A stretch of DNA of 64,000 bases from Candidatus Bathyarchaeota archaeon. Lineage in GTDB: Archaea > Thermoproteota > Bathyarchaeia > TCS64. The stretch covers positions 1-64,000 of the forward strand of contig JBDRQD010000046.1 of NCBI GenBank assembly GCA_043826455.1, in the 5' to 3' direction. This document shows, in pieces, positions 4,091 through 62,450 of the stretch. Made by a program: the position numbers and the translations under genes. The notes beneath the pieces are model-generated. The model did no database searches. It was not told the origin of the DNA and saw nothing but the letters and a program-made list of their open reading frames with translations. Position 1 is the stretch's first letter; each line of letters begins with the position of its first letter.

Positions 4091-4260
4091 GCGGTTTTGT
4101 GTTTGGTGTGTGTGTTCTTTCTTGGTGTGGTTCTCTGCGGGAAAGCCGTGGTAGGTAGATTAAAGGAATTACTTTTTTGATGGGGGTTTATCGTCAACAG
4201 GCCTGGGTGTTGAGTCTTGCGCCTTTGTCATGTTTATTTATTAGGTTTAGCTTGAATTAA

Positions 4261-4557
4261 TTGATGGTTCAGGTTTGTCCTTTTTGTAGGAAACAGATCG
4301 CGGATGAGGATATGGTTTGCCCTTACTGTGGTGATCTCTTGATTTACGAGTATCCGAAGCAGGTAGCGTCTGAGAGAAACGCTGTGTTGTTTCCCGTTGG
4401 GTTTATGCTTCTAATTGGTGCTATTTTGTATGGGGTGTTTCAGTCAGAGTTCAGTGGTGTTATGCGTGGATTGTTTTTCGTCTTCTGGTTGTCTGGGTTC
4501 GTAGTCTTTTGTGTGTACGTTGGTAAAGGGGACAGGGATTTCTGGTGGGGAAGATAA
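4261..4557 (+). CDS. Zinc-ribbon membrane protein
   Basis: CPFC...CPYC followed by two hydrophobic helices. Confidence 0.75.
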   Translation: MMVQVCPFCRKQIADEDMVCPYCGDLLIYEYPKQVASERNAVLFPVGFMLLIGAILYGVFQSEFSGVMRGLFFVFWLSGFVVFCVYVGKGDRDFWWGR

Positions 4558-4673
4558 ATCCAGCCATATAGTGAAAACGTGCGCGTTTAACACAAACCAC
4601 TCTCCCGAGTGTTTGAATTAGTCAATTTATTATCAAGTCGTGGCGAATCGGCGCGCGCACCTAGGCCCCATTA

Positions 4674-4688
4674 TCCTCCGGGCTACCA
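4674..4688 (+). mobile_element. att-like remnant resembling the 3' end of archaeal tRNA-Gln (tcctccgggctacca)
   Basis: Resembles the CCCGGGCTACCA acceptor end; overlaps the 3' end of the integrase remnant; no upstream tRNA body. Confidence 0.5.
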
Positions 4689-5029
4689 CTGTCCATGCTC
4701 AGATATCTGCTACTTCTGAGCTTCTCTAACAGGGTTTTTCAGATAGTTTTCGACAGTATGGTGTATTCTTCTTCCTGTCTCTGCGTAGGATCAATGCTTG
4801 TTCTGTGTGGCTTCAATATAGCTTCCCGGCTCAACACCTCGCTAGGGTCCAAGCCCAATGCCATGGCAACGCCCCTCAGGGTCTCTATCTTGTTCATCTT
4901 GGTTTGTGGCCTGATGCTCAACCCTGCGTTACGATAGACTTCTCTGAGCTCCTCAACGTCTGTACTCTGCATATCGAGATACGTGTCCTGAATGTACCCC
5001 ATCATGCGCGACCACTTGTGTGTTATCAT
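4676..5029 (-). pseudogene. C-terminal remnant of a tyrosine recombinase/integrase
   Basis: MMGY...TY (degenerate H/Y catalytic region) then ELREVY..AGLSIRPQTK..KIE..GLDPSEVLSREA..PHRT; TGA at 4739-4741 interrupts a frame that continues KTLLEKL...SGSPE; N-terminus absent. Confidence 0.7.
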
Positions 5030-5068
5030 TTAAATTGATCCCTGTTTCAGACATTACATAATCTACAA

Positions 5069-5614
5069 ATGGAGAATCATACAATGGAAAGACCTTCAGT
5101 TTTTAAGGACCCCAACTTGTGGGGGGCATCGGTAATAATTCTTATCACAATCATTCTCTCGATAGCCACCTTTTTCCGTTGGTTCTCATTGCGTTTCCAA
5201 GTCGGTCCATTCTCTTTTACTCATTGGCTGGGTTGGATAGGGGCCCTGTTCATAGCATTTTACACGCCAATATACTATGTATTGAAGCGAAGAAACCCGA
5301 AACTAGTCAAAACACTCATCAAAATCCATGTATTTGGTAACCTACTTGGTGTCATGTTGATATCAATACACTACGCCCAACAGATGGGTAGGCCAGCAGA
5401 ATTCTATCCGGAGTTAGGAACAGGATTAACATTGTACATTGTAATGTTCATACTGGTAGCTACAGGTTTCCTTCACAGATTTGGGGTGTTAGATAAATTA
5501 GGGCGATATCGTATATTTCTGCCTCATCAAAATAGGTTTTTACATATTGCTATTACTTTGACTTTTTATATTGTTATACTTGTCCATATACTCCGAAACG
5601 TGGGTATTTTATAG
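5069..5614 (+). CDS. Multi-pass membrane protein with several in-membrane His (possible cytochrome b/ferric-reductase-like)
   Basis: About 5 hydrophobic segments; THWLG, KIHV, SIHY, FLHIA, LVHI; AT-rich. Confidence 0.6.
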   Translation: MENHTMERPSVFKDPNLWGASVIILITIILSIATFFRWFSLRFQVGPFSFTHWLGWIGALFIAFYTPIYYVLKRRNPKLVKTLIKIHVFGNLLGVMLISIHYAQQMGRPAEFYPELGTGLTLYIVMFILVATGFLHRFGVLDKLGRYRIFLPHQNRFLHIAITLTFYIVILVHILRNVGIL

Positions 5615-5665
5615 ACACCTTCATTTTTTTCTTGAAACCACTCAGATGCGCGCGCGTTAAACACT

Positions 5666-6484
5666 TTATTTCAAGTTAGCAGGTTGAGGATTTAGGTCTG
5701 TTATGGAGGATTTTATGGAATCAACTGTTTCCTTGTTCATCGTTACGATGCCCGCCTCCCATGTGATACCTGCGGTAGCATTTTGCTGGAAGTTCATCGA
5801 TGAAACAACCGCCAGTAAATCATCAATGATGACTATTTTTGCGTGTAAATTATTTTCATATAATATTTTTATCCCTTCCTTCAAAAGCCACTCGTGAAGC
5901 TTCTTCACATAAGGTCCACTAGAACTACGAGTTACTACCACAACAGTTCTACCATTTCTCCGTGCTGTGGTCAATAATTTTGTTGGCATACTCCGATCAA
6001 TAAACGGATTAACTACAATTATTGTGTTGAAAGCATGTGTGATGATATATTTAGTGAACGTGTCTAAGTAATGGCCTTCGAGGAAGAAATGCTCTTTTTC
6101 CAGTGAAATTTCAGGTTTTTCTAGTTTTACCCATGACTCAGTTGAAGTGATTATATCAGGATATTTTGGAGAAGGTTCTTCGTAATCATCGGGATATTCC
6201 CATTCCTCGGGAGGTTCAAGCCATTCATCCATATGTTCTTCAAAATATTCATAATCTGCCTCAAGTTCCGGACGTACTCTATATTTACCTGAATCTTCTA
6301 GAATAACATCGCCTTCTTGGATCAGTTCACCTAATAAAATATGAAGGTCAGTCCATTGATACAAAATGGTTTGGTTTAAAATTTTTTCTATTTCTTGAAA
6401 TGTTCTAGCCCCATGAAGAACAATCGCAGAAATAACTTCACCTTTCTCGGTAAACAGATGCTTGATCTCTTTTGGAGCCATCAA
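5666..6484 (-). CDS. Phospholipase D (HKD) superfamily protein, probable nuclease, with N-terminal wHTH-like domain
   Basis: LHAKIVIIDD...SSMN...EAG motif; AT-rich. Confidence 0.8.
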   Translation of the reverse strand: MMAPKEIKHLFTEKGEVISAIVLHGARTFQEIEKILNQTILYQWTDLHILLGELIQEGDVILEDSGKYRVRPELEADYEYFEEHMDEWLEPPEEWEYPDDYEEPSPKYPDIITSTESWVKLEKPEISLEKEHFFLEGHYLDTFTKYIITHAFNTIIVVNPFIDRSMPTKLLTTARRNGRTVVVVTRSSSGPYVKKLHEWLLKEGIKILYENNLHAKIVIIDDLLAVVSSMNFQQNATAGITWEAGIVTMNKETVDSIKSSITDLNPQPANLK

Positions 6485-6573: not shown

Positions 6574-7023
6574 ATGGACTTTATTACAGCATACATCATA
6601 TTTGTAATTCTTTTTATCTTCATTCTAGTTAAATTCGCAAAAAAGCCAACACACAAAACCTATGGCATCCAATCAATTACTAGTGACGGAAGAGAAGTAA
6701 AAAGCTATTCTGAAAAAATATTAGCAGATTACTTTCAAAATATAAATTTACGTTACCAGTATGAGCCAGGCTTAAATGACATATATGCAAATCCCGATTT
6801 CTACTTACCTGATTATGATGTATATGTTGAGTATTGGGGATTGCTTGAAGCAGACGATCCTTATGTCAAGCGTAACTATGAAAATCATATGAAACGTAAA
6901 ATGGCAATTTATTATGAAAATAAAATAAAATTCATTTCGATATACCCAAAAAACTTGGAAAACCTAGACTGGATTTTTAGAAAAAAATTTGAAAACGTAA
7001 CAGGTAAAAAACTACCTCACTAA
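6574..7023 (+). CDS. Membrane-anchored PD-(D/E)XK nuclease-like protein
   Basis: N-terminal TM; VKSYSEKILADY, PDFYL..YVEYWG. Confidence 0.7.
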   Translation: MDFITAYIIFVILFIFILVKFAKKPTHKTYGIQSITSDGREVKSYSEKILADYFQNINLRYQYEPGLNDIYANPDFYLPDYDVYVEYWGLLEADDPYVKRNYENHMKRKMAIYYENKIKFISIYPKNLENLDWIFRKKFENVTGKKLPH

Positions 7024-7331
7024 AATTATCCAACTATTAATCCGAGAATAATGCTTTATTGAACGTAAAATACTCTGATGAACGAATACTCCAAAACTCA
7101 AGATAAGATAATTTCACACTCCATGAATCATACTTACCGTTCACGTCAGCCCAGAAACCAACGAGAACCCATCTATATATTGTGTTTCCTTCAAGATCTA
7201 CCTGACCACGGGGCCCACTCTCCATCTCACAGACAAACAACTCACCGAACTGAAACCAGACTAGATCAGTACCTAGACCCCAGTATCCACCGGGCAACCA
7301 TTATATGAGGCACAGCCCCATGTAACCCATC

Positions 7332-8513
7332 TTGCTGAGTAAAACAGCCGTCAGACGCCTCATGCTCGATAAACAGGGTATAGGCCCCCACACCGGCTCA
7401 GCCGACAAGGAAGCCGTCTACAGGACCATAGACCGCCTGGGCTGCCTCCAGATCGACACCATCAACGTCGTCGAACGAGCCCAGTACCTCACCCTCTGGA
7501 CCAGACTAGACCAATACGACAAGAACAGCCTGGACACCCTAGCCTACCAGGACAGACGCCTCTTCGAGCACTGGGCCCACGCAGCCAGCTACATCCCCCT
7601 CAACGACTACAGGTACTACCTACAATCCATGCAGCAGAGAAGAGAGGAAGCAGAGCAGAGATTCAACCGCCGCACAGGCAAGGACCCAGAACTCATCAAC
7701 AGAGTACTAGACAGGATCAGAGACGAGGGCCCCCTGGGCTCCAGCGACTTCGAGGGCCCCAAACGGAAAGGCGGCTGGTGGAACTGGAAACCCGCCAAGC
7801 TAGCCCTGGAGCTCCTCCTCGGCGCAGGCATCCTCCAAGTCCACCACAGGAACAACTTCCAAAGATACTACGACCTCTCGGAGAACGTCCTGCCCCAATG
7901 GGTGAACACGGAGCCGCCCCCCGACGACGAACGGGTCAGGTTCTTCACCCTCAGAACCCTGGGCGCCCTGGGGGCCGTCAAACCCTCAGACATCAGGGAG
8001 TACTACCACCACTGGTCCGTCAAGCTGGGCCGCACCACCAAGCAGCTGGAGACCACCCTGGAGGAGCTGGTATCGGATGGCTCAGTCGAGAAGCACAGGA
8101 TCGAAGGTGAGAGGCCCAACTACTACGCCCTGGCCTCAGACTCCGCGGACGCCGAGCGACTATCCGACGACTGGGACCTAAACCAGGTGCGCCTCCTCAA
8201 CTACTTCGACAACCTCATGTGGAACCGGGGAAGAGTCCACACCCTCTTCGGGTTCCAGCCCAAGCTGGAGGTTTACCTCCCCGTAGATCAGAGAGTCTAC
8301 GGCTACTACCACCTACCGGTCCTACACGGAGACAGACTGGTGGCCCGCCTCGAACCCAAACTGGAGCGATCCGAGAGCAGCCTCAAGGTGAGAGGCTACT
8401 GGCTGGAGCCTGGCTTCAAACCCACCGAGGAGTACCAGGACAAACTGGAACAAAACCTGTGGTCCCTGGCCCGGCTCACGGGCGCGGACACCGTGACGTG
8501 GGCTACTTCTTAG
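7332..8513 (+). CDS. ycaQ: YcaQ/AlkZ family winged-helix DNA glycosylase (interstrand crosslink repair)
   Basis: LQIDTINVVERAQYL (QxD motif), FEHWAH, RVYGYYHLPVL. Confidence 0.88.
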   Translation: MLSKTAVRRLMLDKQGIGPHTGSADKEAVYRTIDRLGCLQIDTINVVERAQYLTLWTRLDQYDKNSLDTLAYQDRRLFEHWAHAASYIPLNDYRYYLQSMQQRREEAEQRFNRRTGKDPELINRVLDRIRDEGPLGSSDFEGPKRKGGWWNWKPAKLALELLLGAGILQVHHRNNFQRYYDLSENVLPQWVNTEPPPDDERVRFFTLRTLGALGAVKPSDIREYYHHWSVKLGRTTKQLETTLEELVSDGSVEKHRIEGERPNYYALASDSADAERLSDDWDLNQVRLLNYFDNLMWNRGRVHTLFGFQPKLEVYLPVDQRVYGYYHLPVLHGDRLVARLEPKLERSESSLKVRGYWLEPGFKPTEEYQDKLEQNLWSLARLTGADTVTWATS

Positions 8514-9285
8514 GCCAGCCCGTGACCTGAGTCTTGAGAGGCGGCTCACCCTTCACCTTACCCAGGACATCCATGGCCAGCTCCACGTTATCCTTAGGAC
8601 CCTCCAGGAGAAAGACCTTACAGCCCTCGGCACCATCAATGCCACCAGCTGCAATAGGAACAACGTCCACCCCGAAGAGAAGCCTCATGGCCTCCATCTC
8701 AGTGATGACCTGACCGTGAACCACAATGATGCCACACTTCCAGCCCATGCAGCGGTCGATGACCTCCGTGCCCATCATGCTCTGCAAAGCATCCAAGGGG
8801 CCCGGCACCAGCTTCTCCAAGCCGGCCGGTATTATGAGCTGAATCCCGTTCCTCACTATGTAGCCCCACGCCGTCCCTATGGTGCCCCCGCCGGCCCCCG
8901 CCAATAGTATCCCTGCGGCGCCGAAAGAGTCGATGGCGTTGGCACCCTTGATGAACACATCGTCCGGCCCCATCCTAGACAGATAGGGCACGAGCTCACC
9001 CGTGTTGCACTCCTTAAGCTGCCCCTTCTCAAACACATAGTGACTGTACCTGCCCTCCGTCTTGGTGATGTTGAGGCCCGTGGCCGTCACCACACCCGCG
9101 GTGAACATGCCCTTGTCGGGTATCTTCTTATCCATGAGCTCCTCGGCCACGTAGGCCGTGGTGGTGCTGGTGGCTAAGATTAGGATGCCCTCCTGGTACG
9201 CCTTCTGCACCGGCTCCATGCAACTGATGGCCTTGGCTATGAGCCGCTTGCCCTCGGCGGGGGTGAGAACTACCTGTGCCTTCAT
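8503..9285 (-). CDS. Conserved hypothetical protein
   Basis: VLTPAEGKRLIAKA, FIKGANAID, GLEKLVP; coherent codon usage. Confidence 0.75.
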   Translation of the reverse strand: MKAQVVLTPAEGKRLIAKAISCMEPVQKAYQEGILILATSTTTAYVAEELMDKKIPDKGMFTAGVVTATGLNITKTEGRYSHYVFEKGQLKECNTGELVPYLSRMGPDDVFIKGANAIDSFGAAGILLAGAGGGTIGTAWGYIVRNGIQLIIPAGLEKLVPGPLDALQSMMGTEVIDRCMGWKCGIIVVHGQVITEMEAMRLLFGVDVVPIAAGGIDGAEGCKVFLLEGPKDNVELAMDVLGKVKGEPPLKTQVTGWPKK

Positions 9286-9505
9286 GTCTGTTCCTCGGAT
9301 AACTATGCATGGAGATTGGGGCTTTAAATAAAAAGGTAGCTAAAGAGAGGCGGCCCGCCACCAAATAATACCCTAAGACCTGTCACCGTGCGCCATATTA
9401 TGGTGGCGGCTGAGCCGGAGTCCACATTAAAAATTTGAGCAAAGAGACCCCTGCCCCCATGAACACGTTTACAGTAAAGGATAAACTCGCCCGGCCGGAC
9501 CCGGG

Positions 9506-13219: not shown

Positions 13220-13804
13220 TTGAAGACAGCCATACTCGTTGACAACATGTACCTCCAAAACCTGAAGGACGAGTACTGCGTGGGCACCCTAGACCCACGG
13301 CTATACCCCGCGCACCTCCTCAGACCAGGAGAGAACCACTTCATGACCTACATCTTCGACGCTGAGCCCTACGTGCCCAAGGAGGGAGCGACCGATATAC
13401 ATTTTGAGCAGAGGCGGAGGAAGAGGGAGTACTTCGAGGCTATCCAGATGCTTGAGCGTGTCAAGGTCGAACTGGGCTATGTTGTGCCCCGACCCGGGAG
13501 GTGCCCGCAGTGCGGGGAGATGTTCACCGTGCCGGTCCAGAAACAGGTAGACGTGAAGATATCTGTGAGGCTAATGTCCCTCGCCTGGGAGAGGGCCGCG
13601 GAGAAGATCGTGCTCCTCTGCGGCGACGGGGACGTGCTCCCAGCCGTTAGGGCGGTCGAGCCGACGGGGACCATCGTGAGGCTTGCCTATGGACAGGTTG
13701 GAAGGGTAAGGGCGAGCAGGGCGCTGATCAGGGAGTGCCCGGAGAAGATGGAGCTAACCAGGGAGAACCTAGAGAGAATGATGCTCAAGCCCAGAGAGGT
13801 ATAA
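13220..13804 (+). CDS. NYN domain (LabA/DUF88, PIN-like) protein
   Basis: AILVDNMY, QKQVDVK, LCGDGD; CPQC insert; TTG start. Confidence 0.85.
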   Translation: MKTAILVDNMYLQNLKDEYCVGTLDPRLYPAHLLRPGENHFMTYIFDAEPYVPKEGATDIHFEQRRRKREYFEAIQMLERVKVELGYVVPRPGRCPQCGEMFTVPVQKQVDVKISVRLMSLAWERAAEKIVLLCGDGDVLPAVRAVEPTGTIVRLAYGQVGRVRASRALIRECPEKMELTRENLERMMLKPREV

Positions 13805-13844: not shown

Positions 13845-14105
13845 CTAAGTTATTATTATGGCGGACTCCACGAGAGCCCTTAACTTATCGTTGTTTACCC
13901 CTGTGTAGACTATGGCTCCGTCCTCGTCGTAGATGATCTTGTTGGACGCCTCAAGGTAATCCAGCACCCGTTTGAAGGTCTGATACTGGACCTTCCTGGG
14001 CAGGCTCCTCCACAGCTTCATCTTGGTCGGGTACTCCTCCGCGTCTATGATGGCTTTCTCAATCATGAGTATAGTGTCCAGCCGGGGCTCGTGCAGAACC
14101 TTCAT
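13845..14105 (-). CDS. Small wHTH-like hypothetical protein
   Basis: PRLDTILMIEKAI...LWRSLPRKVQYQTFKRVLDYLE. Confidence 0.7.
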   Translation of the reverse strand: MKVLHEPRLDTILMIEKAIIDAEEYPTKMKLWRSLPRKVQYQTFKRVLDYLEASNKIIYDEDGAIVYTGVNNDKLRALVESAIIIT

Positions 14106-14159
14106 CACAGCCCAACAAAATATACAGTTATATAAACTTATACAACTCAACGATTGAGG

Positions 14160-14771
14160 TCACATAGCCAGACTTAGCAGGAGCCCTGCAAGGTCGTGGA
14201 GTACCCCCACCACAACAATCCACAGAAGCACAACAACCACAGCTCTCCCCCAAGAAAGGCTGAACACCTCCCTGACCGCCAGGCCCTGCCACACCGTGGC
14301 CCAAAGACCCACAGCGTAGAAGGGGTTAGGAGCCCAGCCGAAGAGGAACCCCGGCGTCATACCGTAGACCACGGCCACGGCGGACAGCCTCTGAAAGTCA
14401 CCGAACGCGGGCCTCCCCATGACGAGCCAGGCAGCCGACGCCAACACGGGGGCGCTCACCGCGGCCAGCACCAGATAACCCGCCATCACGAACCCTGCGA
14501 AGAACAGGGCCTCAGCCAAGCCGCCCACCTTCAAGCCCAGGGTCTCAAGAGCCCAAGGCGCGAAGATCTGTGCAGAACCCCCCGCGTTACTGGGGTTGGA
14601 GTAGTCCACCCCGTAGAGGCTGAGGACACCGGAGATGAGGGCAGTGACCCACCCAATGGTCAGGACGTGGCACAGGGAGTCCCTGAAGCCTCTATCCCTG
14701 AGCGACCTGAACGCGCCGAGGGGGTCAACAACGATCCTGTAGACCAGGCGCAGCCGCTCCAAACAGGCCAC
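14160..14771 (-). CDS. Yip1-like membrane protein
   Basis: IVVDP..AF N-terminus, five TM helices, LAVREVFSLSWGRA. Confidence 0.7.
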   Translation of the reverse strand: MACLERLRLVYRIVVDPLGAFRSLRDRGFRDSLCHVLTIGWVTALISGVLSLYGVDYSNPSNAGGSAQIFAPWALETLGLKVGGLAEALFFAGFVMAGYLVLAAVSAPVLASAAWLVMGRPAFGDFQRLSAVAVVYGMTPGFLFGWAPNPFYAVGLWATVWQGLAVREVFSLSWGRAVVVVLLWIVVVGVLHDLAGLLLSLAM

Positions 14772-14864
14772 CGTTGATAAATCCCAGCCTGGAAATATAT
14801 CTATAGTTGAAACTTAGAATACACCAAGCCCACCCTTTTTATCACTCAGCAACTCCATCCCCTC

Positions 14865-15311
14865 ATGGAGCTCGTCTACATAGGCCGCGTCCGCTCACCC
14901 GTCACCGAGGCCGTGGACATGAACTGGGGCCATGTCGTCTCCGAGATCGTCCTGGAGCCCGAGTACGCCCCCGGCCTCCAGGGCCTAGAAGAGTTCAGCC
15001 ACGTCCTCGTCCTCACCCACCTCCACAAGGCAGAGTGGGACCCGGAGAAGCACCTCCGGCGCCGCCCCCAGGAGCGCAGCGACATGCCCCTCACCGGCAT
15101 CTTCGCCCAGAGGGCCCGCCACCGCCCCAACAGGATAGGCGTCACAGCCGCCGAGATAGTCGAGGTCACCGGTAACACATTGAAGGTCCGGGCCCTGGAC
15201 GTCGTGGACGGCACCCCCATCATCGACATCAAACCCTACGTACCCTACTACGACCGCAGAGACGCCGCTATCCCCGAGTGGATGACCCGAATGATGAAAG
15301 ACTACTTCTAG
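14865..15311 (+). CDS. trmO: tRNA m6t6A37 methyltransferase TrmO/TsaA family
   Basis: GLEEFSHV, GIFAQRARHRPNRIG, LDVVDGTPIIDIKPY. Confidence 0.92.
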   Translation: MELVYIGRVRSPVTEAVDMNWGHVVSEIVLEPEYAPGLQGLEEFSHVLVLTHLHKAEWDPEKHLRRRPQERSDMPLTGIFAQRARHRPNRIGVTAAEIVEVTGNTLKVRALDVVDGTPIIDIKPYVPYYDRRDAAIPEWMTRMMKDYF

Positions 15312-15363
15312 TTAGCTAAATGCAACCCGAAAAATTATCACATTCTTCCACGCAGCTGTCATC
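15311..15363 (+). repeat. Short intergenic repeat family C, copy 1
   Basis: ttagctaaa-gcaa-cc-aaaaa-tatcacattct...gtcatc shared with 51759-51810. Confidence 0.7.
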
Positions 15364-15475
15364 AGTCCCCCGTATTCGCCTCATTACATGCCATATGTAA
15401 CAAACCCTGAGCCCCCCCACAACACAATTCCCAGCCACTAGGAACAAACCCCAAGAATACCAGAGAAACCAGAGG

Positions 15476-16105
15476 CTACAGCCTATGCGGCGGCGGATAC
15501 CTGGGATACGCCACCCTACTAGGCCCCAGGCCCAACTCCACGGCCACCTCCGCCAACTTCAGGCTGGCCTCACCCCCATCCACCACCGGCAGCCCCGTCC
15601 TCTCCCGGAGAGGCCGCCCCATACCGAACATGCCCAGACAGTCCAGGTAGAAGGAGTCATACCCCTCCGCAACAGCGGCGCGGATAGCCTCCTCCGTCAG
15701 CCTGTAAGTCAGATCCAGGTCGTCCCTGAGCCGGAGCACCGGCAACGGGTGACGAATCCTACCCACCCGCTTACCCGCCATGGACGCCAGCAGCCGCATG
15801 GCCTCCCCCGGCCCGATGACGGGGATATCCACCAGGGTCCTGGCCTCCTCCACACCAGGGTCACCGCCACACCAGCTGATAACCGCGTCGTAGCCATCAG
15901 CCTCAGCCGCCTCCACATGCTTGATGACCTCAGCCGCGGCCTGAAGATGATCCACGGCGCACTCGATGGCCGGAGGCCCCTCCCTCACCTGAAGGTACTC
16001 CACCTCGGTCCCGTCCCTCGCGATGGACCTGAGGAAGCTCATCCTCTCCTCCATCTTGCCGCCGTCCAACCCAGTGATGGAGACAATCACCAGAATCCTC
16101 ATCAC
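15476..16105 (-). CDS. Asp/Glu/hydantoin racemase family protein
   Basis: GPPAIE, CGGDPG, PVIGPGEA, LDCLGM, PVVDG. Confidence 0.85.
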   Translation of the reverse strand: MMRILVIVSITGLDGGKMEERMSFLRSIARDGTEVEYLQVREGPPAIECAVDHLQAAAEVIKHVEAAEADGYDAVISWCGGDPGVEEARTLVDIPVIGPGEAMRLLASMAGKRVGRIRHPLPVLRLRDDLDLTYRLTEEAIRAAVAEGYDSFYLDCLGMFGMGRPLRERTGLPVVDGGEASLKLAEVAVELGLGPSRVAYPRYPPPHRL

Positions 16106-16198
16106 CCTGGAATAAGTGGCACAGGTTTATAACGTCCACTAGCCCAGGGCCCCCAGAAAACATTTATCGTCAACCCGCCCACGTTTACCTGAGCAGGG

Positions 16199-16660
16199 TT
16201 GACCTTCAGAGTAGGCTACCTCACCCAGAGGGAGCAGGACATCTGGGACCTCAGGCGCCGCCGCAACACCCAGTCACAGATAGGCCGCATGATGGGCGTC
16301 AGCCGCCAGGCCATCCACAAGGCGTACCAGATCATTGACCAGAAGGTTGAGCAGGCCTTCCTGGAGGCCGCGGACGCCAACCACCTGGAGCCGAGCACCA
16401 TCAACCTGGTGGAGGGTGTCATGGAGGCCCACAGCCCCGCCTACAGGATCCCCGTGGTAGTCAGCTTCAGCAAAACCAACGGCGTCAAGGTCTGGTACCT
16501 CTACGAGGGTAAGTGCGGCGAGTGCCACCTGGAGAGCAGCTGTAGGGCGACCCTGGAGAACGAGGCCCAGGAGCGGGGCGTAGACATCACCGCCGCCGAC
16601 AAGCTGAGGACCCCCACCCGGCTCGCCACAAAGATATTCGGGTTGGACGACGCAGGATGA
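16199..16660 (+). CDS. HTH DNA-binding protein (sigma-4/LuxR-like) with C-terminal Cys cluster
   Basis: LTQREQDIW..TQSQIGRMMGVSRQAIHK; CGECHLESSC. Confidence 0.7.
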   Translation: MTFRVGYLTQREQDIWDLRRRRNTQSQIGRMMGVSRQAIHKAYQIIDQKVEQAFLEAADANHLEPSTINLVEGVMEAHSPAYRIPVVVSFSKTNGVKVWYLYEGKCGECHLESSCRATLENEAQERGVDITAADKLRTPTRLATKIFGLDDAG

Positions 16661-17571: not shown

Positions 17572-19314
17572 ATGAATGCCCTCCGCAGAGCGTTAAGCTA
17601 CCTCTCACCCTACAAACGGGAGGCCGTGCTGGCCACTGTCCTACTGGGGCTGGTGGTGGTCACCGACCTATCCATCCCCAGGCTCGTCCAGGTCATAGTG
17701 GACGACGGCGTCGCCAAGATGGACATAGGAGTCATCCTGTGGACCAGCCTCCTCATGATAGGGGCCAGCCTCCTCAGCGCCGTGTTCATGATAGCCAACA
17801 CTGTATACGCCGTCAGGGCGGCCAGGGGCATGGAGGCCGACCTGAGAGAGGGGCTCTTCAGGAAGATACAGACCTTCAGCTTCGACAACCTGGACGAGTT
17901 CCAGACGGGGCAACTTCTGACCAGGCTGACCAGCGACATCAACCAGATCCAGATGATAGTGTTGATGGCTCTCAGGATGTTCACCCGGGCGCCCCTCATG
18001 TTCGTGGGCAGCGTCACCATAATGTACGTCACCAACCCCACGCTGGCTACCTCTATGCTGGCTGTGCTTCCGGTGGTCATCGTCCTGGTTACCCTGTTCA
18101 TAAGGTGGATAGAGCCTCTGTTCACCAAGGTCCAGGAGAAGCTTGAGGCGTTGAACCAGGTGCTCCAGGAGAACATCTCAGGGATCAGGGTGGTCAAGGC
18201 CTTCGTGCGCCGCGACTACGAGGGGGCCAGATTCAACAGGGCCAACTATGAGCTCACCAGCACATCGGTGCGGGTGACCCAGCTCCTGAGCGTCTTCTTC
18301 CCCCTCATCATGGCCATCATGAACCTGGCGGGGGTGGCCCTCATCTACTACGGCGGCGTCCAGGTCAGCCTAGGGACGGCCACGGTGGGGGAGATCATGG
18401 CCTTCACCAACTACCTGATGAGCACCATGTTCCCGGTGATCATGCTGGCCATGATGGCGGGCCAGATATCGGCGGCCAACGCTTCGGCGGTGAGGATCAT
18501 GCAGATCATGGACGCGGAGCCGGGGATCAGGGACAGGCCCGACGCGGCGCCCTTCGAGAATGTCTCAGGCAGAGTGGCCTTCGAGAACGTCACCTTCAGC
18601 TACAGGGACGACGGCGGTGACCCGGTGCTCCAGGACGTGTCCTTCACGGCTGAGCCGGGGCAGAGGGTGGCCATTCTGGGGTCCACGGGCAGCGGCAAGT
18701 CAAGCCTCATCAACCTGATACCCAGGTTATATGACGTCTCATCGGGGAGGGTGACAGTGGACGGCGTGGATGTCCGGGACATCACCTTGGATAGCCTCCG
18801 GGGCGCCATGGGCATCAGCCTACAGGAGGCCGTGCTCTTCACCGGCACCATACGGGACAACATAAGGTACGGGCGAGGCTCTGCCACCGACGAGGAAGTG
18901 GTGGCCACGGCCAAGGCGGCCCAAGCCCACGACTTCATAGTCGGGTTCCCCCAGGGCTACGACACCATGGTGGGGCAGCGGGGGGTCAACTTGAGCGGCG
19001 GGCAGAAGCAGAGGATCGCCATCGCGAGGGCTCTGCTGGTGAACCCTAAGATACTGATTCTTGATGACAGCACGAGCAGTGTGGATGTGGAGACGGAGAT
19101 ACTCATCGAGAGGGCTCTGGAGGAGCTCATGAGGGATCGTACCAGCTTCGTCATCGCCCAACGTATAAGCACGGTTCTCACGGCGGACAAGATACTGGTC
19201 CTAGACAACGGCAGGATCGCTGCGGAGGGGGACCACGCCACGCTCATGGAGACGAGCCCCATCTACAAGGAGATATATGATAGCCAGCTGGGCGACGGAG
19301 GCGCTGCACAATGA
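17572..19314 (+). CDS. ABC exporter, fused permease/ATPase (heterodimer subunit, degenerate site)
   Basis: GSTGSGKS, LSGGQ, Walker B LILDD, switch His replaced (IAQR). Confidence 0.95.
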   Translation: MNALRRALSYLSPYKREAVLATVLLGLVVVTDLSIPRLVQVIVDDGVAKMDIGVILWTSLLMIGASLLSAVFMIANTVYAVRAARGMEADLREGLFRKIQTFSFDNLDEFQTGQLLTRLTSDINQIQMIVLMALRMFTRAPLMFVGSVTIMYVTNPTLATSMLAVLPVVIVLVTLFIRWIEPLFTKVQEKLEALNQVLQENISGIRVVKAFVRRDYEGARFNRANYELTSTSVRVTQLLSVFFPLIMAIMNLAGVALIYYGGVQVSLGTATVGEIMAFTNYLMSTMFPVIMLAMMAGQISAANASAVRIMQIMDAEPGIRDRPDAAPFENVSGRVAFENVTFSYRDDGGDPVLQDVSFTAEPGQRVAILGSTGSGKSSLINLIPRLYDVSSGRVTVDGVDVRDITLDSLRGAMGISLQEAVLFTGTIRDNIRYGRGSATDEEVVATAKAAQAHDFIVGFPQGYDTMVGQRGVNLSGGQKQRIAIARALLVNPKILILDDSTSSVDVETEILIERALEELMRDRTSFVIAQRISTVLTADKILVLDNGRIAAEGDHATLMETSPIYKEIYDSQLGDGGAAQ

Positions 19315-21185
19315 GTAGACAGGGCAGAGGCGGGCCCCAGGACGAGGGCGGCCAGCGGAGGCCGCCCATGGGACCCAGGCACGGCCCGGGCGGCATGGGG
19401 GCCATGGAGAAGGCTAAGAACCCACGGAACGCGTTGCTGAGGCTTCTGGACTACCTGAGGCCTTTCAGGCTGCACCTGGCCGCCATTGGCCTGCTCACTG
19501 TTGCGGGCACGGTCCTGGGCCTGGCGGGGCCCTACCTGATGGGGGTGGCCATAGACAGGTACATCATGGTGAGGGACCTAGAGGGGCTACTAGACATCTC
19601 TCTGCTTCTGGCGGGGACATACGTGGCCAGCGCCGCGGCGTCCATGGCGGCGGGCTGGATCGCGGCGGGCATCAGCCAGAGGAGCCTGATGCAGATGAGG
19701 AAGGAGCTCTTCGACCACATGCAGACCCTGAGCCTAGGCTACTTCGACAGGAACCCTGCGGGGGACCTGATGAGCAGGCTCACCAACGACATTGACGCCA
19801 TTAGCTCGGCTTTGACGCAGAACGTCACTAGCCTCATTTCAAATGGGATTACCATCGTGGGGGTCCTGGCGCTGATGCTGGTGCTGAACGTGAGGCTTAC
19901 CTTGGCCAGCCTCATAGTGTTTCCGCTGATGACGGTTTTCACGGCGGTGGTGGGTAAGAGGACCCGGGAGAGCTTCATGGGGCTCCAGGTGAACCTGGGG
20001 GCCATGAACAGCGTTATGCAGGAGACGGTGAGCGGCCAGCGGGTGGTCATAGCCTTCAACCAGCAGGCCACGGTGACGGCCAAGTTCTCCGAGGCTAACA
20101 GGAGGGTGAAGGAGATGGGGATAAAGGCCATGACCTACGCCATGCTGGTGCCCCCCATGATGGGCATCCTGAGCAACACAAACATCGCCATCGTGGCGGG
20201 TCTAGGAGGCTGGATGGCCCTCAGCGGGTTGGCTACGGTGGGCACCATCGCGGCCTTCATAGCCTATAGCCGCAGGTTCGCTGACCCCCTCCGGCAGATA
20301 GCCAACCTTTACAACAACATCATGTCAGCCCTGGCCGGCTCCGAGAGGATATTCGAGGTGCTGGACACCGATCCGGAGATCGTTGACGCGGAGGACGCCG
20401 CGGGCTTCGAGGACTTTGAGGGGGCTGTGGAGTTCAGGGACGTGGACTTCGGGTACGTTGAGGGCGTGCCCGTGCTGAGGCATGTGAGCCTCAGGGCTGA
20501 GCCTGGGCAGACAATAGCCCTAGTGGGGCCCACGGGGGCGGGTAAGACTACGATAGTTAACCTCCTCACCCGGTTCTACGATATCCAGGGGGGCAGCATC
20601 AGCATCGACGGCGTGGACGTCAGACACATCAGGAAGGATGACCTCCGGCGGCAGCTGGGCATAGTGCTGCAGGACGTGTTCCTGTTCAGCGGCTCGGTGA
20701 TGGATAACATCAGGTACGGGCGCCTGGACGCCACCGAGGAGGGGGTCATGGCCGCTGCGAGGCTGGCTAACGCGGATGGGTTCATCAGGCGCCTGCCCCG
20801 GGGGTACAGGACGGAGCTGAGTGAACGGGGCGGCAACCTTAGCCAGGGGCAGAGGCAGCTTCTGAGTATAGCGAGGGCGATCCTGGCTGACCCGGCTATC
20901 CTAGTGCTGGACGAGGCCACGAGCAGCGTGGATACGCGTACGGAGCGGCAGATACAGGAGGCGCTGCTGAACCTGATGAAGGGGCGGACCAGCTTCGTGA
21001 TAGCCCACAGGCTGAGCACCATCAGGAACGCTGACCTGGTGCTGGTCATCAACCGGGGTGAGATCATTGAGCGGGGGACCCACGATGAGCTGCTGGCGGC
21101 GCGGGGCTTCTACTACCACCTGTACATGAGCCAGTTCAAGGGCACCAACCACAGGCCGGAGCTGGCTGAAAAAACGGTGGGGTGA
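19311..21185 (+). CDS. ABC exporter, fused permease/ATPase (heterodimer subunit)
   Basis: GPTGAGKT, LSQGQ, LVLDE, IAHR. Confidence 0.95.
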   Translation: MSRQGRGGPQDEGGQRRPPMGPRHGPGGMGAMEKAKNPRNALLRLLDYLRPFRLHLAAIGLLTVAGTVLGLAGPYLMGVAIDRYIMVRDLEGLLDISLLLAGTYVASAAASMAAGWIAAGISQRSLMQMRKELFDHMQTLSLGYFDRNPAGDLMSRLTNDIDAISSALTQNVTSLISNGITIVGVLALMLVLNVRLTLASLIVFPLMTVFTAVVGKRTRESFMGLQVNLGAMNSVMQETVSGQRVVIAFNQQATVTAKFSEANRRVKEMGIKAMTYAMLVPPMMGILSNTNIAIVAGLGGWMALSGLATVGTIAAFIAYSRRFADPLRQIANLYNNIMSALAGSERIFEVLDTDPEIVDAEDAAGFEDFEGAVEFRDVDFGYVEGVPVLRHVSLRAEPGQTIALVGPTGAGKTTIVNLLTRFYDIQGGSISIDGVDVRHIRKDDLRRQLGIVLQDVFLFSGSVMDNIRYGRLDATEEGVMAAARLANADGFIRRLPRGYRTELSERGGNLSQGQRQLLSIARAILADPAILVLDEATSSVDTRTERQIQEALLNLMKGRTSFVIAHRLSTIRNADLVLVINRGEIIERGTHDELLAARGFYYHLYMSQFKGTNHRPELAEKTVG

Positions 21186-21194
21186 GGCCCGGCC

Positions 21195-21410
21195 TCACCC
21201 TTTGTAGTGTATGGGGTTGGGGGCTCCGCACCCTGGGCATGTCTTGTCGTCGAACTTGAGGCTTTGGCCGCACTTGCACCTGGTCCACAGCTGTTGGCCG
21301 CAGCCGGGGCAGTAGCGTTTGCCTGTGAGGGGGTGGGGCCCCGCGGCGAGGTCGCTTCTGATGCTGGCGCCGCAGTAGGGGCAGAGCCACTGGGTGATCG
21401 TGTGCTCCAT
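21195..21410 (-). CDS. Small multi-zinc-ribbon protein
   Basis: CPYC, CPGC, CKC, CPGC. Confidence 0.75.
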   Translation of the reverse strand: MEHTITQWLCPYCGASIRSDLAAGPHPLTGKRYCPGCGQQLWTRCKCGQSLKFDDKTCPGCGAPNPIHYKG

Positions 21411-21549
21411 GTTTGATGTTTGGTTGTGGGGGGAGATAAGGTTTGAGGGGGCTGGCCTTTCAGCTGTTTGAGGACCTTGTCTACCCCTCCGCCATTAACT
21501 GTATGCACTCGCATAATGGCATAAATACGAAAGCTAACTTGTTTTTGCT

Positions 21550-22911: not shown

Positions 22912-23016
22912 CCTTAACCATATTATTAGATCACAGGTATACACATCAAAATAGTATACGTATGAGCTTCATGTAACAAGGCATAGAATTATTTTACCTG
23001 ACTCCTGTATCAACCC

Positions 23017-23400
23017 ATGAAAGGCATTGAAGGCATGATCACCTTCACCTACCACGACAACATAGAGAAGGCCAGCGAATTCTACCGCGACGTCCTCGGC
23101 CTCCAACCCGTAATGAACCGGGACTGGGTAAAGATATACAAGGCCGGAGCAGACAGCCACATCGGCCTCGTGGACAGCGAACACGGCTACCTCAAACCCT
23201 CAAAGGACAAGCCCGTCATGCTCAGCATCATGGTGCAGGACATAGACGCATGGCACAGGAGGCTCACAGAGAAGGGCGTCAAGACCAACCACCCGCCCAA
23301 GGAAGCCGACGGCATCCACATGAGGGGCTTCCTCACCTGGGACCCCTCAGGCTACGTCATAGAGCTCCTGGAGTTCCTCACCAAGCCCTACGGCGAATAA
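23017..23400 (+). CDS. VOC/glyoxalase family protein
   Basis: ASEFYRDVLGL...DPSGYVIE. Confidence 0.88.
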   Translation: MKGIEGMITFTYHDNIEKASEFYRDVLGLQPVMNRDWVKIYKAGADSHIGLVDSEHGYLKPSKDKPVMLSIMVQDIDAWHRRLTEKGVKTNHPPKEADGIHMRGFLTWDPSGYVIELLEFLTKPYGE

Positions 23401-51758: not shown

Positions 51759-51810
51759 TTTAGCTAAAAGCAATCCAAAAAATATCACATTCTACCCAGC
51801 CACAGTCATC
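51759..51810 (+). repeat. Short intergenic repeat family C, copy 2
   Basis: Matches 15311-15363 with one indel. Confidence 0.7.
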
Positions 51811-55564: not shown

Positions 55565-55945
55565 GACGAGGAGGCGTCTCACCGAGGAAAAAGCATGAAT
55601 CATGAGATGGAATTTTTTTTCCGCCTTATCCCGGCTGGCACGGGATAAGCCACCCAGGAAACTACACGCCAGCGCGTCGGCCCCAGGAATAAGGAGGGGG
55701 TAGAGCAGGTGAACCGGAAACGGCCGCACCACACCAAAAGGGCTCCTAAAACCGGTCCGACGCCGCAAGAATCTTCACAGAAACACGGTCTATTCAGCAC
55801 ATCAGACACGCTGCATCGGAGCCGATGTGAAAAAAGGTAGGGGGTATCACCTAATGACGATTTTCTCTATTATTAAGGGATACCCGCCCCCATGAAACCG
55901 ACACCCGAGGCACCAGCCAAAGAAGAACATAACCCAAATCCTCTT
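55565..55945 (+). repeat. Dispersed element copy E5 (core B 55605-55628, hairpin, motif D 55824-55848)
   Basis: Collinear with 25700-26190. Confidence 0.88.
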
Positions 55946-60047: not shown

Positions 60048-60048
60048 C

Positions 60049-60777
60049 ATGATCTCCGTGGTGGTGCCCACCTACAACGAGGAGAAGAACATAGAGGGCT
60101 GCCTAAGGTCACTGGTAGATCAGACGGTGCCCCGTGAAGAGATCGACATCATCGTGGTGGACGGGGACAGCACGGATCGGACCAGAGAGATCGCCGAGGG
60201 CATAGCCGACAACTTCATCATCCAAACCAGTGAGGGAGTGGGCGGAGCCAGGAACGACGGCTTCGCCATAGCTCGCGGCGAGATAGTGGCCACCACGGAC
60301 GCTGACTGCCACCCCTTCCCGGACTGGCTAGAGATCATCCAGCGCAACTTCATGGATCCGAAGGTTGTGGCCGTCACCGGGGTCCTGGTGCCCTTCGACT
60401 TCGGCGGCATGGGCAGAGTGGAGGAGTTCGCGTACCGGCTCCTCTTTGACCTGTCTAACGTCGCACTGGTGGTGATGAGCTGGTTCGGTAAGATGCACCT
60501 GTGCGGGGCCAACTCGGCCTTCAGGAAGGACGCGTTCCTGGAGGCTGGGGGCTACCTGCCCCTGGCCTACGCAGATGACGTGGAGATATACAAGAGGGTC
60601 AAGGAGAAGGGTACTGTGAGGCTGGACACCGGGATGAGGATAAACTATAGTGTCCGCCGCATCAGGAAGGTGGGGCTCCTAAGGTACATTCTGCTGTTGT
60701 TCAGGATGGAGTGGGATGTCATGGTGATGGGTAGGAAGCCTGTGAAGGGTGGGTACGCTAGGCAGACCTATGAGTGA
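60049..60777 (+). CDS. Glycosyltransferase family 2
   Basis: SVVVPTYNEE, VDGDSTD, TDAD. Confidence 0.92.
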   Translation: MISVVVPTYNEEKNIEGCLRSLVDQTVPREEIDIIVVDGDSTDRTREIAEGIADNFIIQTSEGVGGARNDGFAIARGEIVATTDADCHPFPDWLEIIQRNFMDPKVVAVTGVLVPFDFGGMGRVEEFAYRLLFDLSNVALVVMSWFGKMHLCGANSAFRKDAFLEAGGYLPLAYADDVEIYKRVKEKGTVRLDTGMRINYSVRRIRKVGLLRYILLLFRMEWDVMVMGRKPVKGGYARQTYE

Positions 60778-60819
60778 GGTGGGGTTTTTGTTGGGGGGAT
60801 CGTTGGGTCTTTGTGTTTT

Positions 60820-61210
60820 CGTTGTGTGCGCGTGGGGGGAGGGGGGGTCCCATCACCGCCACCGCGATTCCCCGTTTTCCGGCTTTTTTTCTGGTTCAGA
60901 GGCTTTTTTAGGGTTCTTTGGCGGTGGCGGTGGTTTGTGGTGTCCGTCGTGTCTGTGGTCGCGTGGGTTGTGTCGTTGTGGGGGGTGGTCGGTGTTCCTG
61001 TGTGGATCAGGGTCGTGTTAGACTGGTTTCTGGGGTCTTTTCGGTCTGGTGTGGACGTTTCTGGTTTCTCTGCCATCTCCCTTTCTGGGGGCTGGTGCCA
61101 GTGTGGTGGGTGATGAGTTGCATGCAAGGCTTATGCTCTCCAGGAGGGTGTAAGGTGGAAAAATATTCCATCTCCTGCCTCATGATTTTACTTCAGTGAG
61201 ATGTTTCCCC
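60820..61210 (-). repeat. Dispersed element copy E6 (core B 61151-61173; perfect arms 60854-60865 and 60921-60932)
   Basis: Carries both the B core and the inverted-repeat module, linking the two repeat sets. Confidence 0.88.
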
Positions 61211-61282
61211 GTTTAACTGGTTTGTTACATGGAACAATGTAGCTAACATCCCATTTTCTGAATTCTTCATAGGTGAACTGGT

Positions 61283-62197
61283 CTACTCTCTGTTTCTCAG
61301 CTTCACCGCGTCGTAGACCCCCGCCAACAGAAACTGAACACCCACACCCAGGAACAGCCCCGAGTCGAACACCAGCCTATCATACCTCTCCCTCAGCCCC
61401 GGCAACTCAAAGACGACCCTGAAAGACTGTAGCAGAGGATACCCGTGAGGACTACCGAACCTGACGCTGCCCTCCAAGATGAGAGACCTGTGACCCGCCG
61501 CCCACTCGCGCCAGTAGATCGACTCGCCCACCGGCTGAGGAATTGACTCCACGACCCTGCTTTCAACGGGCAGGTCCACCCTCAGGCTGACCAGCGGCTC
61601 ACCGCTCAGCCAGCAGGCGTCAGGCCTCACATCCAGCGCCGCCTCCGAGTCGCTGTTGCTGAAGGGCACGGCCAGCTCGTAGCTCGTGTACCCGACCCTG
61701 GAGACCGCACCGAACCACCGGAAGCTCACCATGACCGTGAACATCGGGTACTTCGACTCCGGCTTGAACTCATAGTACATGACCGAGACGTCCTCTTCGG
61801 GCACCCACTCTATGACCGCGTCCCCCGTGTAGTATATCTCCCGGGACTTCTCGTCGTCGAGCCCCATCACCTTGAAGAAGGCACCCTCGACCCTGTGGGG
61901 CACCTGCAGGCCGAACATGATCTCCCCCTCGCCCTGTACAGCGACCTCCCCCGCCAGCATGCAGTCCACGTACCCCTCCTCCAGCGAGATCGACGTCACC
62001 TCGAAGGTCATCTCATCGGCCTCAAAGTCCCGCGACGCGAAGGGCAGAACACCGTAGTAGGGGAGGATGACCGCCTGGTGCCCCTGCGAGACCTCCATGG
62101 AATACATCACCCCGAGGGCCGTGAACACGATCCCCACCACAAGCGGGAAATACACTATAGCGGCCCGCAGCCTCTGACGGTAAAGGCGCTCAAACAT
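61283..62197 (-). CDS. Hypothetical membrane protein (N- and C-terminal TM helices, beta-rich middle)
   Basis: 304-aa ORF with terminal hydrophobic helices. Confidence 0.7.
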   Translation of the reverse strand: MFERLYRQRLRAAIVYFPLVVGIVFTALGVMYSMEVSQGHQAVILPYYGVLPFASRDFEADEMTFEVTSISLEEGYVDCMLAGEVAVQGEGEIMFGLQVPHRVEGAFFKVMGLDDEKSREIYYTGDAVIEWVPEEDVSVMYYEFKPESKYPMFTVMVSFRWFGAVSRVGYTSYELAVPFSNSDSEAALDVRPDACWLSGEPLVSLRVDLPVESRVVESIPQPVGESIYWREWAAGHRSLILEGSVRFGSPHGYPLLQSFRVVFELPGLRERYDRLVFDSGLFLGVGVQFLLAGVYDAVKLRNRE

Positions 62198-62450
62198 GAA
62201 TAATCATCGCGAGCCACGACATATATAGCGTTAATCAGCAGGCAACACTGAAAAGACGACGCAAAGAACCATTACAATTGTTATCCTTTTAATAATTTCA
62301 ACGTAGAACATAGATGTGATAAACCATGAAGCGTGCGCGCTCCGTTTCTATAACAATTAATTATTATAAGACGAGAAAGTGCACTGAAATCTTCCACCTT
62401 TTACATGGAACACGTTCAAATGAAACCTGGTCGATTGTAGGGTTTCTGGG

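Follow-up and report, generated by a model that had tools for sequence, protein, structure and literature searches.

The + strand of the 64,000-nucleotide stretch of Bathyarchaeota DNA analysed here (the window) appears by eye to turn repeatedly from G/T-rich to C/A-rich, which raises the question of whether these switches outlast correction for coding strand and, if so, what leaves them. Skew was measured as the keto residual at synonymous sites, corrected per codon family for coding strand, on home-made gene calls (3129 genes, 87% coding; some low-GC genes missed). The z values are naive, taking synonymous sites as independent. The saw-tooth described in the first-pass annotation was partly confirmed: it survives correction but has no period. 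Seven of the ten named switch flanks persist after coding-strand and amino-acid correction, six of them clearly and the one at 61.1 kb only within 0.5 kb. The G/T excess left of 4.2 kb (+0.24, z 10.4) and the C/A excesses after 7.1 kb (-0.19, z -8.5), 14.2 kb (-0.17, z -7.0; -0.19 at 15.4-16.6 kb), 23.0 kb (-0.16, z -7.0) and 61.3 kb (-0.17, z -6.9) were all reproduced. A switch had been placed at 21.4 kb; the G/T excess before that point is real (+0.15, z 6.8), but it runs on through the M14 peptidase gene (+0.145), and the switch therefore lies at ~22.95 kb. The G/T excess before 61.1 kb holds close in (60.5-61.0 kb bin, +0.18, z 3.9) and is just +0.06 at 59.9-60.8 kb, while the C/A excess after 51.8 kb is weak (-0.07, z -3.1). 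The supposed G/T rise left of 13.8 kb (+0.006) vanishes, as do both flanks of the 32.2/32.4 kb switch (left +0.014, right -0.009), which reflects only the usual change of coding strand where a divergent promoter lies. The strongest gradient of the window, a C/A excess at 0.3-1.5 kb (-0.34, z -15.6), was absent from the initial list. From left to right, the features are:

153-277, + strand: repeat E1, 127 nt, with stem arms and a C7-T-C7 tract (G7AG7 on the opposite strand), heading the strongest C/A gradient
300-2200, + strand: C/A gradient covering yhbY, two Lrp genes and a methyltransferase on the opposite strand
2750-3960, + strand: G/T gradient rising toward an E1 copy, covering a HAD hydrolase gene (3277-3951) and the 5' part of cbf5
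3963-4087, - strand: repeat E1 at the left end of an inserted block, missing together with the island in G019 and L139
4088-7278, no strand: low-GC island with an ORF (5069-5614), a PLD-domain protein (5666-6484) and an ORF (6574-7023)
7300-9500, + strand: C/A gradient from the right junction of the island over an AlkZ-like gene, with no repeat detected at its head
13220-13804, + strand: accessory NYN-domain gene; G008 and G019 show a shorter gap at the corresponding place
14100-16600, + strand: C/A gradient over genes of both strands, starting at a gene-order break near 14.15 kb
15312-15455, + strand: repeat head E2, 52 nt with a sharp left end, then two short hairpin modules
19000-22911, + strand: G/T gradient over the second ABC-transporter gene and an accessory M14 peptidase gene (21550-22911)
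23000-24500, + strand: C/A gradient with no scored repeat at its head
32031-32400, no strand: divergent promoter region, coding-strand change only
51760-51810, + strand: repeat head E2 without modules, followed by a weak C/A excess
60824-60946, - strand: repeat E1 with a short G/T gradient on its left
61140-61212, - strand: hairpin repeat E3, a diverged copy forming an inverted pair with 55566-55638
61280-62200, + strand: C/A gradient spanning a gene on the minus strand

In the first three genes of the 300-2200 gradient, four-fold sites are ~96-100% C/A, and the gradient also occurs in relatives carrying a tRNA-Gln gene there, often followed by a hairpin module. Loose contig ends accumulate at 15312 in three runs. 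The gradients at 19000-22911 and 23000-24500 form a true two-sided switch at ~22.95 kb; in G018 and G002 the first of these blocks is either different or absent.

Codon usage, amino-acid composition or an assembly artefact accounts for the named flanks at 13.8, 32.2 and 32.4 kb and for some of the 51.8 kb signal. As a source of the strong gradients it is refuted by mirror shifts in opposite-strand genes and by a signal that follows insertions across orthologues, and we give this explanation as a whole a negligible probability. Contigs of run X1 agree, tiling 1-20 kb at a flat depth of 12-15 with the island included, so an assembly artefact is not indicated; X1 is probably the source sample and hence not independent data. 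Runs X2, X4 and X21 (small share) represent other strains and were left out as evidence.

Across the genome the G/T-to-C/A direction is real. Gene-junction jumps at |z|>5 run from G/T to C/A 108 times versus 29 times in reverse (2811 junctions), and increment skewness at 500 bp is -0.28 (p ~0.009); it is not negative in G019 (+0.13) or G018 (0.0). A matched filter alone separates the directions poorly (165 vs 153 matches) and is uninformative as a direction test. The proposed 10-20 kb period is absent: autocorrelation falls from 0.52 at 1 kb to 0.02 at 4 kb and stays within ~0.03 of zero between 8 and 30 kb, and the repeats are spaced in a Poisson-like way (62 gaps, median 13.5 kb, CV 0.95). 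The unit is a one-sided gradient, decaying over ~0.8-1.6 kb and G/T-rich on the strand whose 3' end faces the site.

Oriented repeats, a family missed by the first-pass annotation, number ~106 in the genome and set the polarity of the gradients in a near-absolute manner. E1 has 43 copies genome-wide scoring above 25. A C/A excess lies ahead of 7/7 E2+E1, 22/22 E2+module, 16/20 E2-alone and 15/18 module-alone copies; the excess decays exponentially (lambda 844 bp for E1, 1598 bp for E2), and little of it lies behind E2. Among 92 strong gradients, a repeat or tRNA of the same polarity is found within 1.2 kb in 40 and of opposite polarity in 4 (random, 5.3%); 52 of the 92 have no detected repeat or tRNA, and just 10 of these adjoin a scored low-GC island. 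Repeats E3/E4 show a weak C/A excess of their own in G000, and 3/6 E3 copies head clear gradients in G019, leaving them only partly usable as a negative control. Orthologues in G019 that lack a detected repeat still carry a C/A excess (+0.12, 26/35 positive, vs +0.37 in G000), so the repeats may have been drawn to sites that already existed. Gradients in G018 are equally strong (variance of z 5.9 vs 5.5) without E2 and with one marginal E1 match in 294 kb.

The repeats fold only modestly better than shuffled sequences, whichever strand is taken (z -1.0 to -3.0). No protein family was found to recur behind repeat heads, no clean substitution spectrum was obtained from repeat copies against their own consensus, and the window holds no Rfam match at gathering thresholds. 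The lone Y1 element, of interest for an IS200/IS605 MITE/REP link, lies on contig C11, which has no E1, E2, E3, E4 or module match. Reverse transcriptase PF00078 has 0 matches in the genome, which speaks against cDNA conversion of the retroelement or DGR type.

Mutagenesis by transcription or R-loops, from promoters in the repeats or in tRNA genes, would suit the single polarity of repeats near 15 scored tRNA genes and the co-orientation of repeats with genes in tandem settings (34 vs 15), and the G7AG7 of E1 resembles mitochondrial CSB II. However, transcription running into the gradient would leave the C/A strand exposed rather than the G/T strand, and the shift is alike whichever strand codes (0.094 vs 0.084). 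The signal at bare tRNAs is weak (mean 0.027 vs 0.117 with a repeat nearby), and tRNA transcription was rejected as the cause on this ground. We consider this explanation highly unlikely.

The 4-7 kb island provides a natural experiment, as G019 joins window position 3953 directly to 7278, with island and E1 missing. On the branch with repeat and island, 33/64 synonymous C on the left flank became T versus 0/27 G that became A, and on the right flank (7300-9500) 20/64 synonymous G became A versus 1/119 C that became T, the mirror image. The keto4 value of the HAD gene is +0.61, +0.63, +0.47 and +0.52 where E1 is present, and +0.51 where tRNA-Gln is inserted, compared to -0.28, -0.21, -0.04, -0.03 and -0.14 in five loci with neither; it is mildly positive (+0.19 to +0.28) in G018, L120 and L121, although no repeat was seen there. 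Since a substitution matrix against G019 was near saturation, three-way branch tests were run at a single locus instead, and 79 versus 39 changes were counted there (p 0.0003; control cbf5, 38 versus 41), including 50 C>T, 12 A>G and 6 C>G versus 1 G>A. C>T without G>A, mirrored at the other flank and with the skew missing from empty alleles, fits single-strand deamination.

The geometry of 5' resection and the chemistry of deamination, both anticipated by the first-pass annotation, are borne out: C>T and A>G are gained on the strand that ends 3' toward the site. The log-odds of the two transitions move by similar amounts on the exposed strand (1.1-1.7) with no dinucleotide preference, and first and second codon positions shift too. 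A C-only, motif-bound signature of the APOBEC/AID type was not found, as A>G shifts as much as C>T in similar contexts. Homologues of NurA, UDG, NucS and EndoV are present in G000; a resection nuclease therefore exists and the pattern is not one of simple repair loss, which eliminates loss of UDG, NucS or EndoV as the cause. EndoV was found in only 7/24 congeners.

The similar, context-free log-odds of the two transitions and the presence of NucS would also suit a source other than chemical damage, namely repair tracts that stop at the repeat and undergo strand-biased gene conversion or retain uncorrected G.T polymerase errors, as would the lack of excess long-term divergence of gradients against G019 (p 0.456, with four-fold sites near saturation). 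Set against this are the twofold branch acceleration, mostly C>T with C>G alongside, and the fact that we know of no keto-biased gene conversion. We regard this reading as scarcely probable.

The switches had been said to coincide with variable DNA, and this stands for gene-order breaks and for the polarity of low-GC flanks, but not for plain insertions and deletions. Gradients occur at 7/24 gene-order breaks versus 60/712 colinear junctions (G019; Fisher p 0.004), and flanks of low-GC islands (n=136) show the predicted polarity 41 times versus 12 against; plain insertions or deletions are not enriched (14/121, p 0.30). Two-ended double-strand-break hotspots, resected on both sides and capturing islands during repair, would give the correct polarity and spectrum, and would agree with the enrichment at gene-order breaks, the two-sided switches at 22.95 and 61.2 kb, the low GC behind repeat heads (15 vs 2 of 81 below 50%) and the mirror acceleration of both island flanks on the same branch. 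Two-sidedness is nonetheless not the rule: both flanks carry gradients in 6/68 islands, where ~6 are expected under independence (correlation -0.07), and mirror gradients behind heads are near the random rate (z>6, 14/83 vs 95/668 random places; z>8, 4/83 vs 59/668), although the distribution behind heads is slightly shifted toward mirror gradients (p ~0.001), which suits two-ended breaks. The effect also tracks repeat orientation, and we judge two-ended breaks rather unlikely as the general source. Mirror pairs for the most part do not exceed chance, so polar fork trouble or nicking is favoured over such breaks.

These data demonstrate the geometry, decay, spectrum and insertion dependence of the gradients, and the exposed G/T strand is probably single-stranded. 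We put at about even odds the fuller proposal, source included, that each tooth records, over evolutionary time, a polar single-stranded tract that keeps recurring beside an oriented mobile repeat or, in some cases, an island junction. At E2+hairpin modules, at E1 or at some island junctions, the strand with its 3' end at the site would be left unpaired over a variable length, with a mean of ~1 kb. Unpaired cytosine and adenine would then deaminate (C>T, A>G and some C>G), rewriting genes of either direction. Most likely the site acts as a polar replication obstacle or nick site, where a fork would leave a long gap, or collapse to a one-ended break that undergoes 5'-to-3' resection before recombination restarts replication. 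In this order, the missing Orc1-1/ORB origin may make such fork events routine, a link that is correlational only.

Judging from gene content, the order appears to have lost the canonical oriC1 system (Orc1-1/ORB). Orc1-1, the ORB-linked initiator, is present in 1/52 genomes of this order versus 135/149 others and was not found in G000 (draft, 97.7% complete). There were 0 strict matches to ORB boxes in the genome or the repeats (best matrix score 17.1, versus 24.6-35.3 for 18 training ORBs), and an ORB likeness of the repeat G-tracts was unsupported. No ORBs were found beside the Orc1-1 gene of G077, which begins 461 bp from a contig end. Positive gradients upstream of tRNAs number 4/28 and 3/9 in the Orc1-1 holders G077 and G101, versus 30/42 in G000. 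The remaining cdc6 has a repeat just downstream in G000, G008 and G013. With the canonical origin system missing, the many-origins reading gains some interest.

As origins, the repeats would be dispersed starts in place of oriC, primed by recombination from 3' tails or else unidirectional, with the leading template primed late. Ordinary leading/lagging chemistry at origins yields a strand asymmetry of opposite polarity to these gradients, so an inverted asymmetry would be needed. The rarity of Orc1-1, the low ORB scores, the lack of tRNA-upstream gradients in its two holders and the repeats beside cdc6 all point toward such starts, but the loss is a single lineage-level event, so these are not independent, and no repeat was seen beside cdc6 in G017, G018 or G025. 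The retained Cdc6, closest to that of Pyrobaculum among solved structures, may itself initiate replication. We find replacement of oriC in this form very unlikely. The related proposal that an order without oriC1/Orc1-1 starts or restarts replication by recombination at at least 100 dispersed, mobile, oriented repeats, with kilobase 3' tails in each cycle leaving the deamination gradients, is unlikely but deserves mention.

Several known systems resemble the polar tract proposed here in part. In vertebrate mitochondria the heavy strand accumulates deamination changes, C>T and A>G confined to a single strand and varying with position, in one genome-wide gradient set by two fixed origins and weakest next to the second-strand origin; here there are >100 local gradients, each strongest at its site. 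Polar gaps at template G-tracts in C. elegans dog-1 extend 5' from the tract on the G-rich strand and end in deletions over a few hundred bases. The gradients share this polarity and direction from a G-tract, but E2 and module heads lack a long one. Like prokaryotic MITEs and REP/BIME mosaics, the repeats are short, non-coding, dispersed, intergenic and built of hairpin modules; unlike these, they often sit at tRNA 3' ends in one orientation, each with a one-sided mutation gradient, and terminal inverted repeats and a partner transposase were not found.

Human meiotic double-strand-break hotspots have resected flanks with strand-asymmetric mutagenesis at a similar 1-2 kb scale, with forward-strand ssDNA left of the break and mutation of C and A (Hinch et al. 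2023, PMC7615360). The present gradients are archaeal and mostly one-sided, repeat orientation decides the side, synonymous sites are driven to over 95% C/A, and no programmed nuclease was identified. Thermococcus kodakarensis and origin-less Haloferax volcanii replicate without oriC, apparently by RadA-dependent starts at many sites, and the portions of these reports consulted mention no local mutation footprint (PMC5663688, PMC5333045); those species keep oriC and its initiator, both of which the whole order here appears to have lost. No prior description of such gradients in Bathyarchaeia or other archaea was found in titles and abstract openings of the literature outside subscription papers.

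Orientation-specific, kilobase-scale mutation fields that move with a mobile repeat would be an undescribed route for selfish DNA to rewrite neighbouring core genes. The gradients breach the stationary-composition assumptions of phylogeny and of origin prediction, and they supply a precise list of candidate sites. With the most conserved archaeal origin apparently lost throughout the order, this lineage is a natural place to ask whether archaea sustain themselves by origin-independent replication. If replication does start by recombination at these repeats, base composition would map where an uncultured organism begins replication, and selfish repeats would be replicators and local mutators at once.

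The window, the first 64 kb of contig C46, belongs to a 2.95 Mb archaeal draft genome, and Cbf5, S19e, S3ae and an archaeal LeuRS are its archaeal markers. Genes were called with a home-made script, and skew was computed as the third-position synonymous G/T excess minus the codon-family genome mean, oriented to the + strand. Six switch-point flanks named in the first-pass annotation, which had itself called for such a correction, outlast this control for coding strand and codon family: those to the left of 4.2 and 21.4 kb and those to the right of 7.1, 14.2, 23.0 and 61.3 kb (|z| between 6.8 and 10.4 throughout). The left flank at 61.1 kb holds within 0.5 kb only, the signal at 51.8 kb is weak after correction, and the signals at 13.8, 32.2 and 32.4 kb are gone. 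The strongest gradient in the window, at 0.3-1.5 kb, was missing from that list. Genome-wide, |z|>4 in 366 of 2869 1-kb bins, skew increments show negative skewness, and sharp G/T-to-C/A jumps number 108, versus 29 in the reverse direction. No periodicity was found where a period of ~10-20 kb had been proposed. The unit of the pattern is a tooth, with a sharp head followed by a decaying tail, and G/T richness lies on the strand with its 3' end towards the head.

Dispersed repeats stand at many heads. Repeat E1 (127 nt) is present 43 times in the genome; it has matches in four of the 24 congeners and none in 16 more distant genomes, and each window copy lies at one of the three steepest raw peaks:

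153-277, + strand, E1 copy
3963-4087, - strand, E1 copy
60824-60946, - strand, E1 copy

The left end of repeat E2 (52 nt, 53 genomic matches; window copies at 15312 and 51760) is sharp, and after E2 come E1 or short hairpin modules. Together E1 and the E2 family make up 106 heads, and skew direction matches repeat orientation almost without exception. Skew rises with repeat content, from 0.058 for E2 alone to 0.134 with a module and 0.224 with E1; tails decay with constants of 0.84 and 1.6 kb. Fifteen scored tRNA genes have a repeat of matching polarity within 600 bp, mostly just beyond the tRNA 3' end, and their mean skew is 0.117 versus 0.027 at 28 bare tRNAs, several of which nevertheless carry teeth. 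Among the 92 teeth with z>=8, a repeat or tRNA of the same polarity was present in 40 and one of opposite polarity in 4; 52 had none, and 10 of these adjoin a scored low-GC island. No scored same-polarity repeat was found at the window heads at 7.1, 14.1, 22.95 and 61.2 kb. Contigs often terminate in or near E1 (e.g., C21, C31, C35, C46, C62 and C66); breakage at a repeat or homopolymer is the simple reading, and these may be true molecule ends. A further system occurs at 25721-26112, 39954-40035, 55589-55856 and 55-78, in which hairpin E3 (57 matches) is often followed ~250 bp further on by E4, an A-tract/G-tract box (61 matches; 1-4 copies at ~95-100 bp spacing). In the relative G019, E3 stands at gradient heads. 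An IS605-like element at ~12620-14140 of contig C11 (by eye, an internal stop interrupts its Y1 transposase and a TnpB-like frame comes next) has ends unlike the repeats.

The junction beside the hydrolase gene HAD (3277-3951) provides a natural experiment. In G019, position 3953 is fused to 7278, and both E1 and the low-GC island are absent. HAD is G/T-skewed where E1 follows it (4 loci) or where tRNA-Gln is inserted (locus L117), and lacks G/T skew in 5 loci having neither insertion. It is mildly positive in G018, L120 and L121, where no repeat was seen; the latter two end at contig ends. In L117, from a close relative (3302-3377, reverse-complemented locus), the tRNA-Gln is inverted at the HAD/AlkZ junction, at the place of E1 in our genome, and heads a gradient of equal polarity. 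Within the island, a further short repeated stretch (4560-4700 and ~7184) shows raised depth and a joint in sequencing run X4.

A comparison that takes L139 for the sister and G019 for the outgroup gives HAD 79 changes on the window branch versus 39 (50 C>T, 12 A>G, 6 C>G and 1 G>A). The adjacent cbf5 is even overall (38 versus 41), its window-branch changes bunching at the HAD-side end. Past the island, the AlkZ-like gene compared with L117 has the mirror spectrum, G>A making up 36 of 63 changes (synonymous sites: G>A 20/64 versus C>T 1/119). Nothing prominent was found in the sequence context of skew sites or branch changes. Deamination of an exposed strand would give C>T and A>G, and the spectrum, read from this one locus, is of that expected type. 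Biased conversion or polymerase error as its source appears very improbable. Endonuclease V was found in only 7 of 24 congeners, compared with 15 of the 16 genomes that lie beyond the genus.

In G019, 35 orthologues at which no repeat was detected keep one third of the C/A excess. At yhbY the tooth is ancient, its head in many relatives being tRNA-Gln, often plus a module, and in G018 teeth are present and headed by other things. These observations tell against the repeat as a simple cause: different heads can stand in for one another, and repeats may be drawn to some of the sites.

The proposed coincidence of teeth with variable DNA holds in part. Against G019 (1.2 Mb, 1010 orthologues, with 72 junctions near its contig ends left out), teeth are enriched at gene-order breaks (7/24 versus 60/712) and show no enrichment at plain insertions/deletions (14/121). 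The window junctions at 4-7, 13-14 and 21-23 kb vary among relatives, but so does that at 32 kb, which has no tooth. Flanks of low-GC islands (136) follow the predicted polarity in 41 cases versus 12 against, unevenly on the left (25 versus 1) and right (16 versus 11). Within an island, one flank behaves independently of the other. GC is lower in DNA behind repeat heads. A short alanine-tRNA ligase (PRK01584 type; 35109-36887) is syntenic in G018, G002, G013 and G019 despite a GC4 of 0.43 amid a background of 0.8.

Polarity, decay, spectrum, independence from gene strand, tracking with insertions and a mostly one-sided form are established. We infer that the G/T strand would be single-stranded 5' of the head, either through a template block leaving a long gap beyond it, or through 5'-to-3' resection from a nick or from a fork that has collapsed. 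Jointly, these two inseparable routes have about an even chance of being correct. NurA homologues in the genome fit the resection route, and resected meiotic hotspots are alike in chemistry and geometry (PMC7615360). Two-ended breaks, which would expose both sides, are unlikely. R-loops are a very unlikely source, as transcription running into the tooth would unpair the opposite strand; strand displacement from the head is disfavoured on the same ground.

Firing from dispersed start sites is quite unlikely, and bears on the initiator. The genome encodes one Orc1/Cdc6. A tree of 21 such proteins has two clades: one, of Cdc6-1 type (394 bits to solved Cdc6 homolog 1), has origin recognition boxes (ORBs) adjoining 7 of 7 genes; the other, without ORBs and nearest to Pyrobaculum Cdc6 (151 bits), holds our genome and its order. 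No ORBs were found in our genome. At completeness >=85%, families f1-f4 yielded the ORB-linked Orc1-1 in one genome out of 52, versus 135 of 149 others, whose misses may include further families of the order. The ORB-flanked initiator was thus apparently lost across the whole order (coordinates given with this loss, C60:1992-3077). Orc1-2 of Sulfolobus does not act as an initiator (PMC6061795). Pyrobaculum, however, has four origins (PMC4010727), and therefore the retained Cdc6 could still initiate.

Positive gradients lie upstream of tRNAs in our genome (30/42), G018 (5/7) and G019 (6/12). None is evident in G077, the sole family member with Orc1-1 (4/28 positive), or the outside genome G101 (3/9); these counts cover 30 of the 49 tRNA matches listed for G077 and 10 of the 39 for G101. 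A 200 kb portion of outside genome G036 is less dispersed (2.3 versus 3.1-5.9). The G077 tRNA loci (L198-L227) carry a small, steady, opposite C/A residual upstream (-0.04; 24/28 negative). Because three genomes are compared with three and ancestry is shared, the comparison gives a lead on a link between Orc1-1 loss and gradients rather than a test of it. Literature titles and abstract openings yielded neither such gradients in archaea nor Orc1-1 loss in this order; the genome-wide tooth count, E2/module family, polarised spectrum and initiator loss are new. The apparent loss of Orc1-1 deserves its own study, even if it should prove to have no causal part in the gradients.
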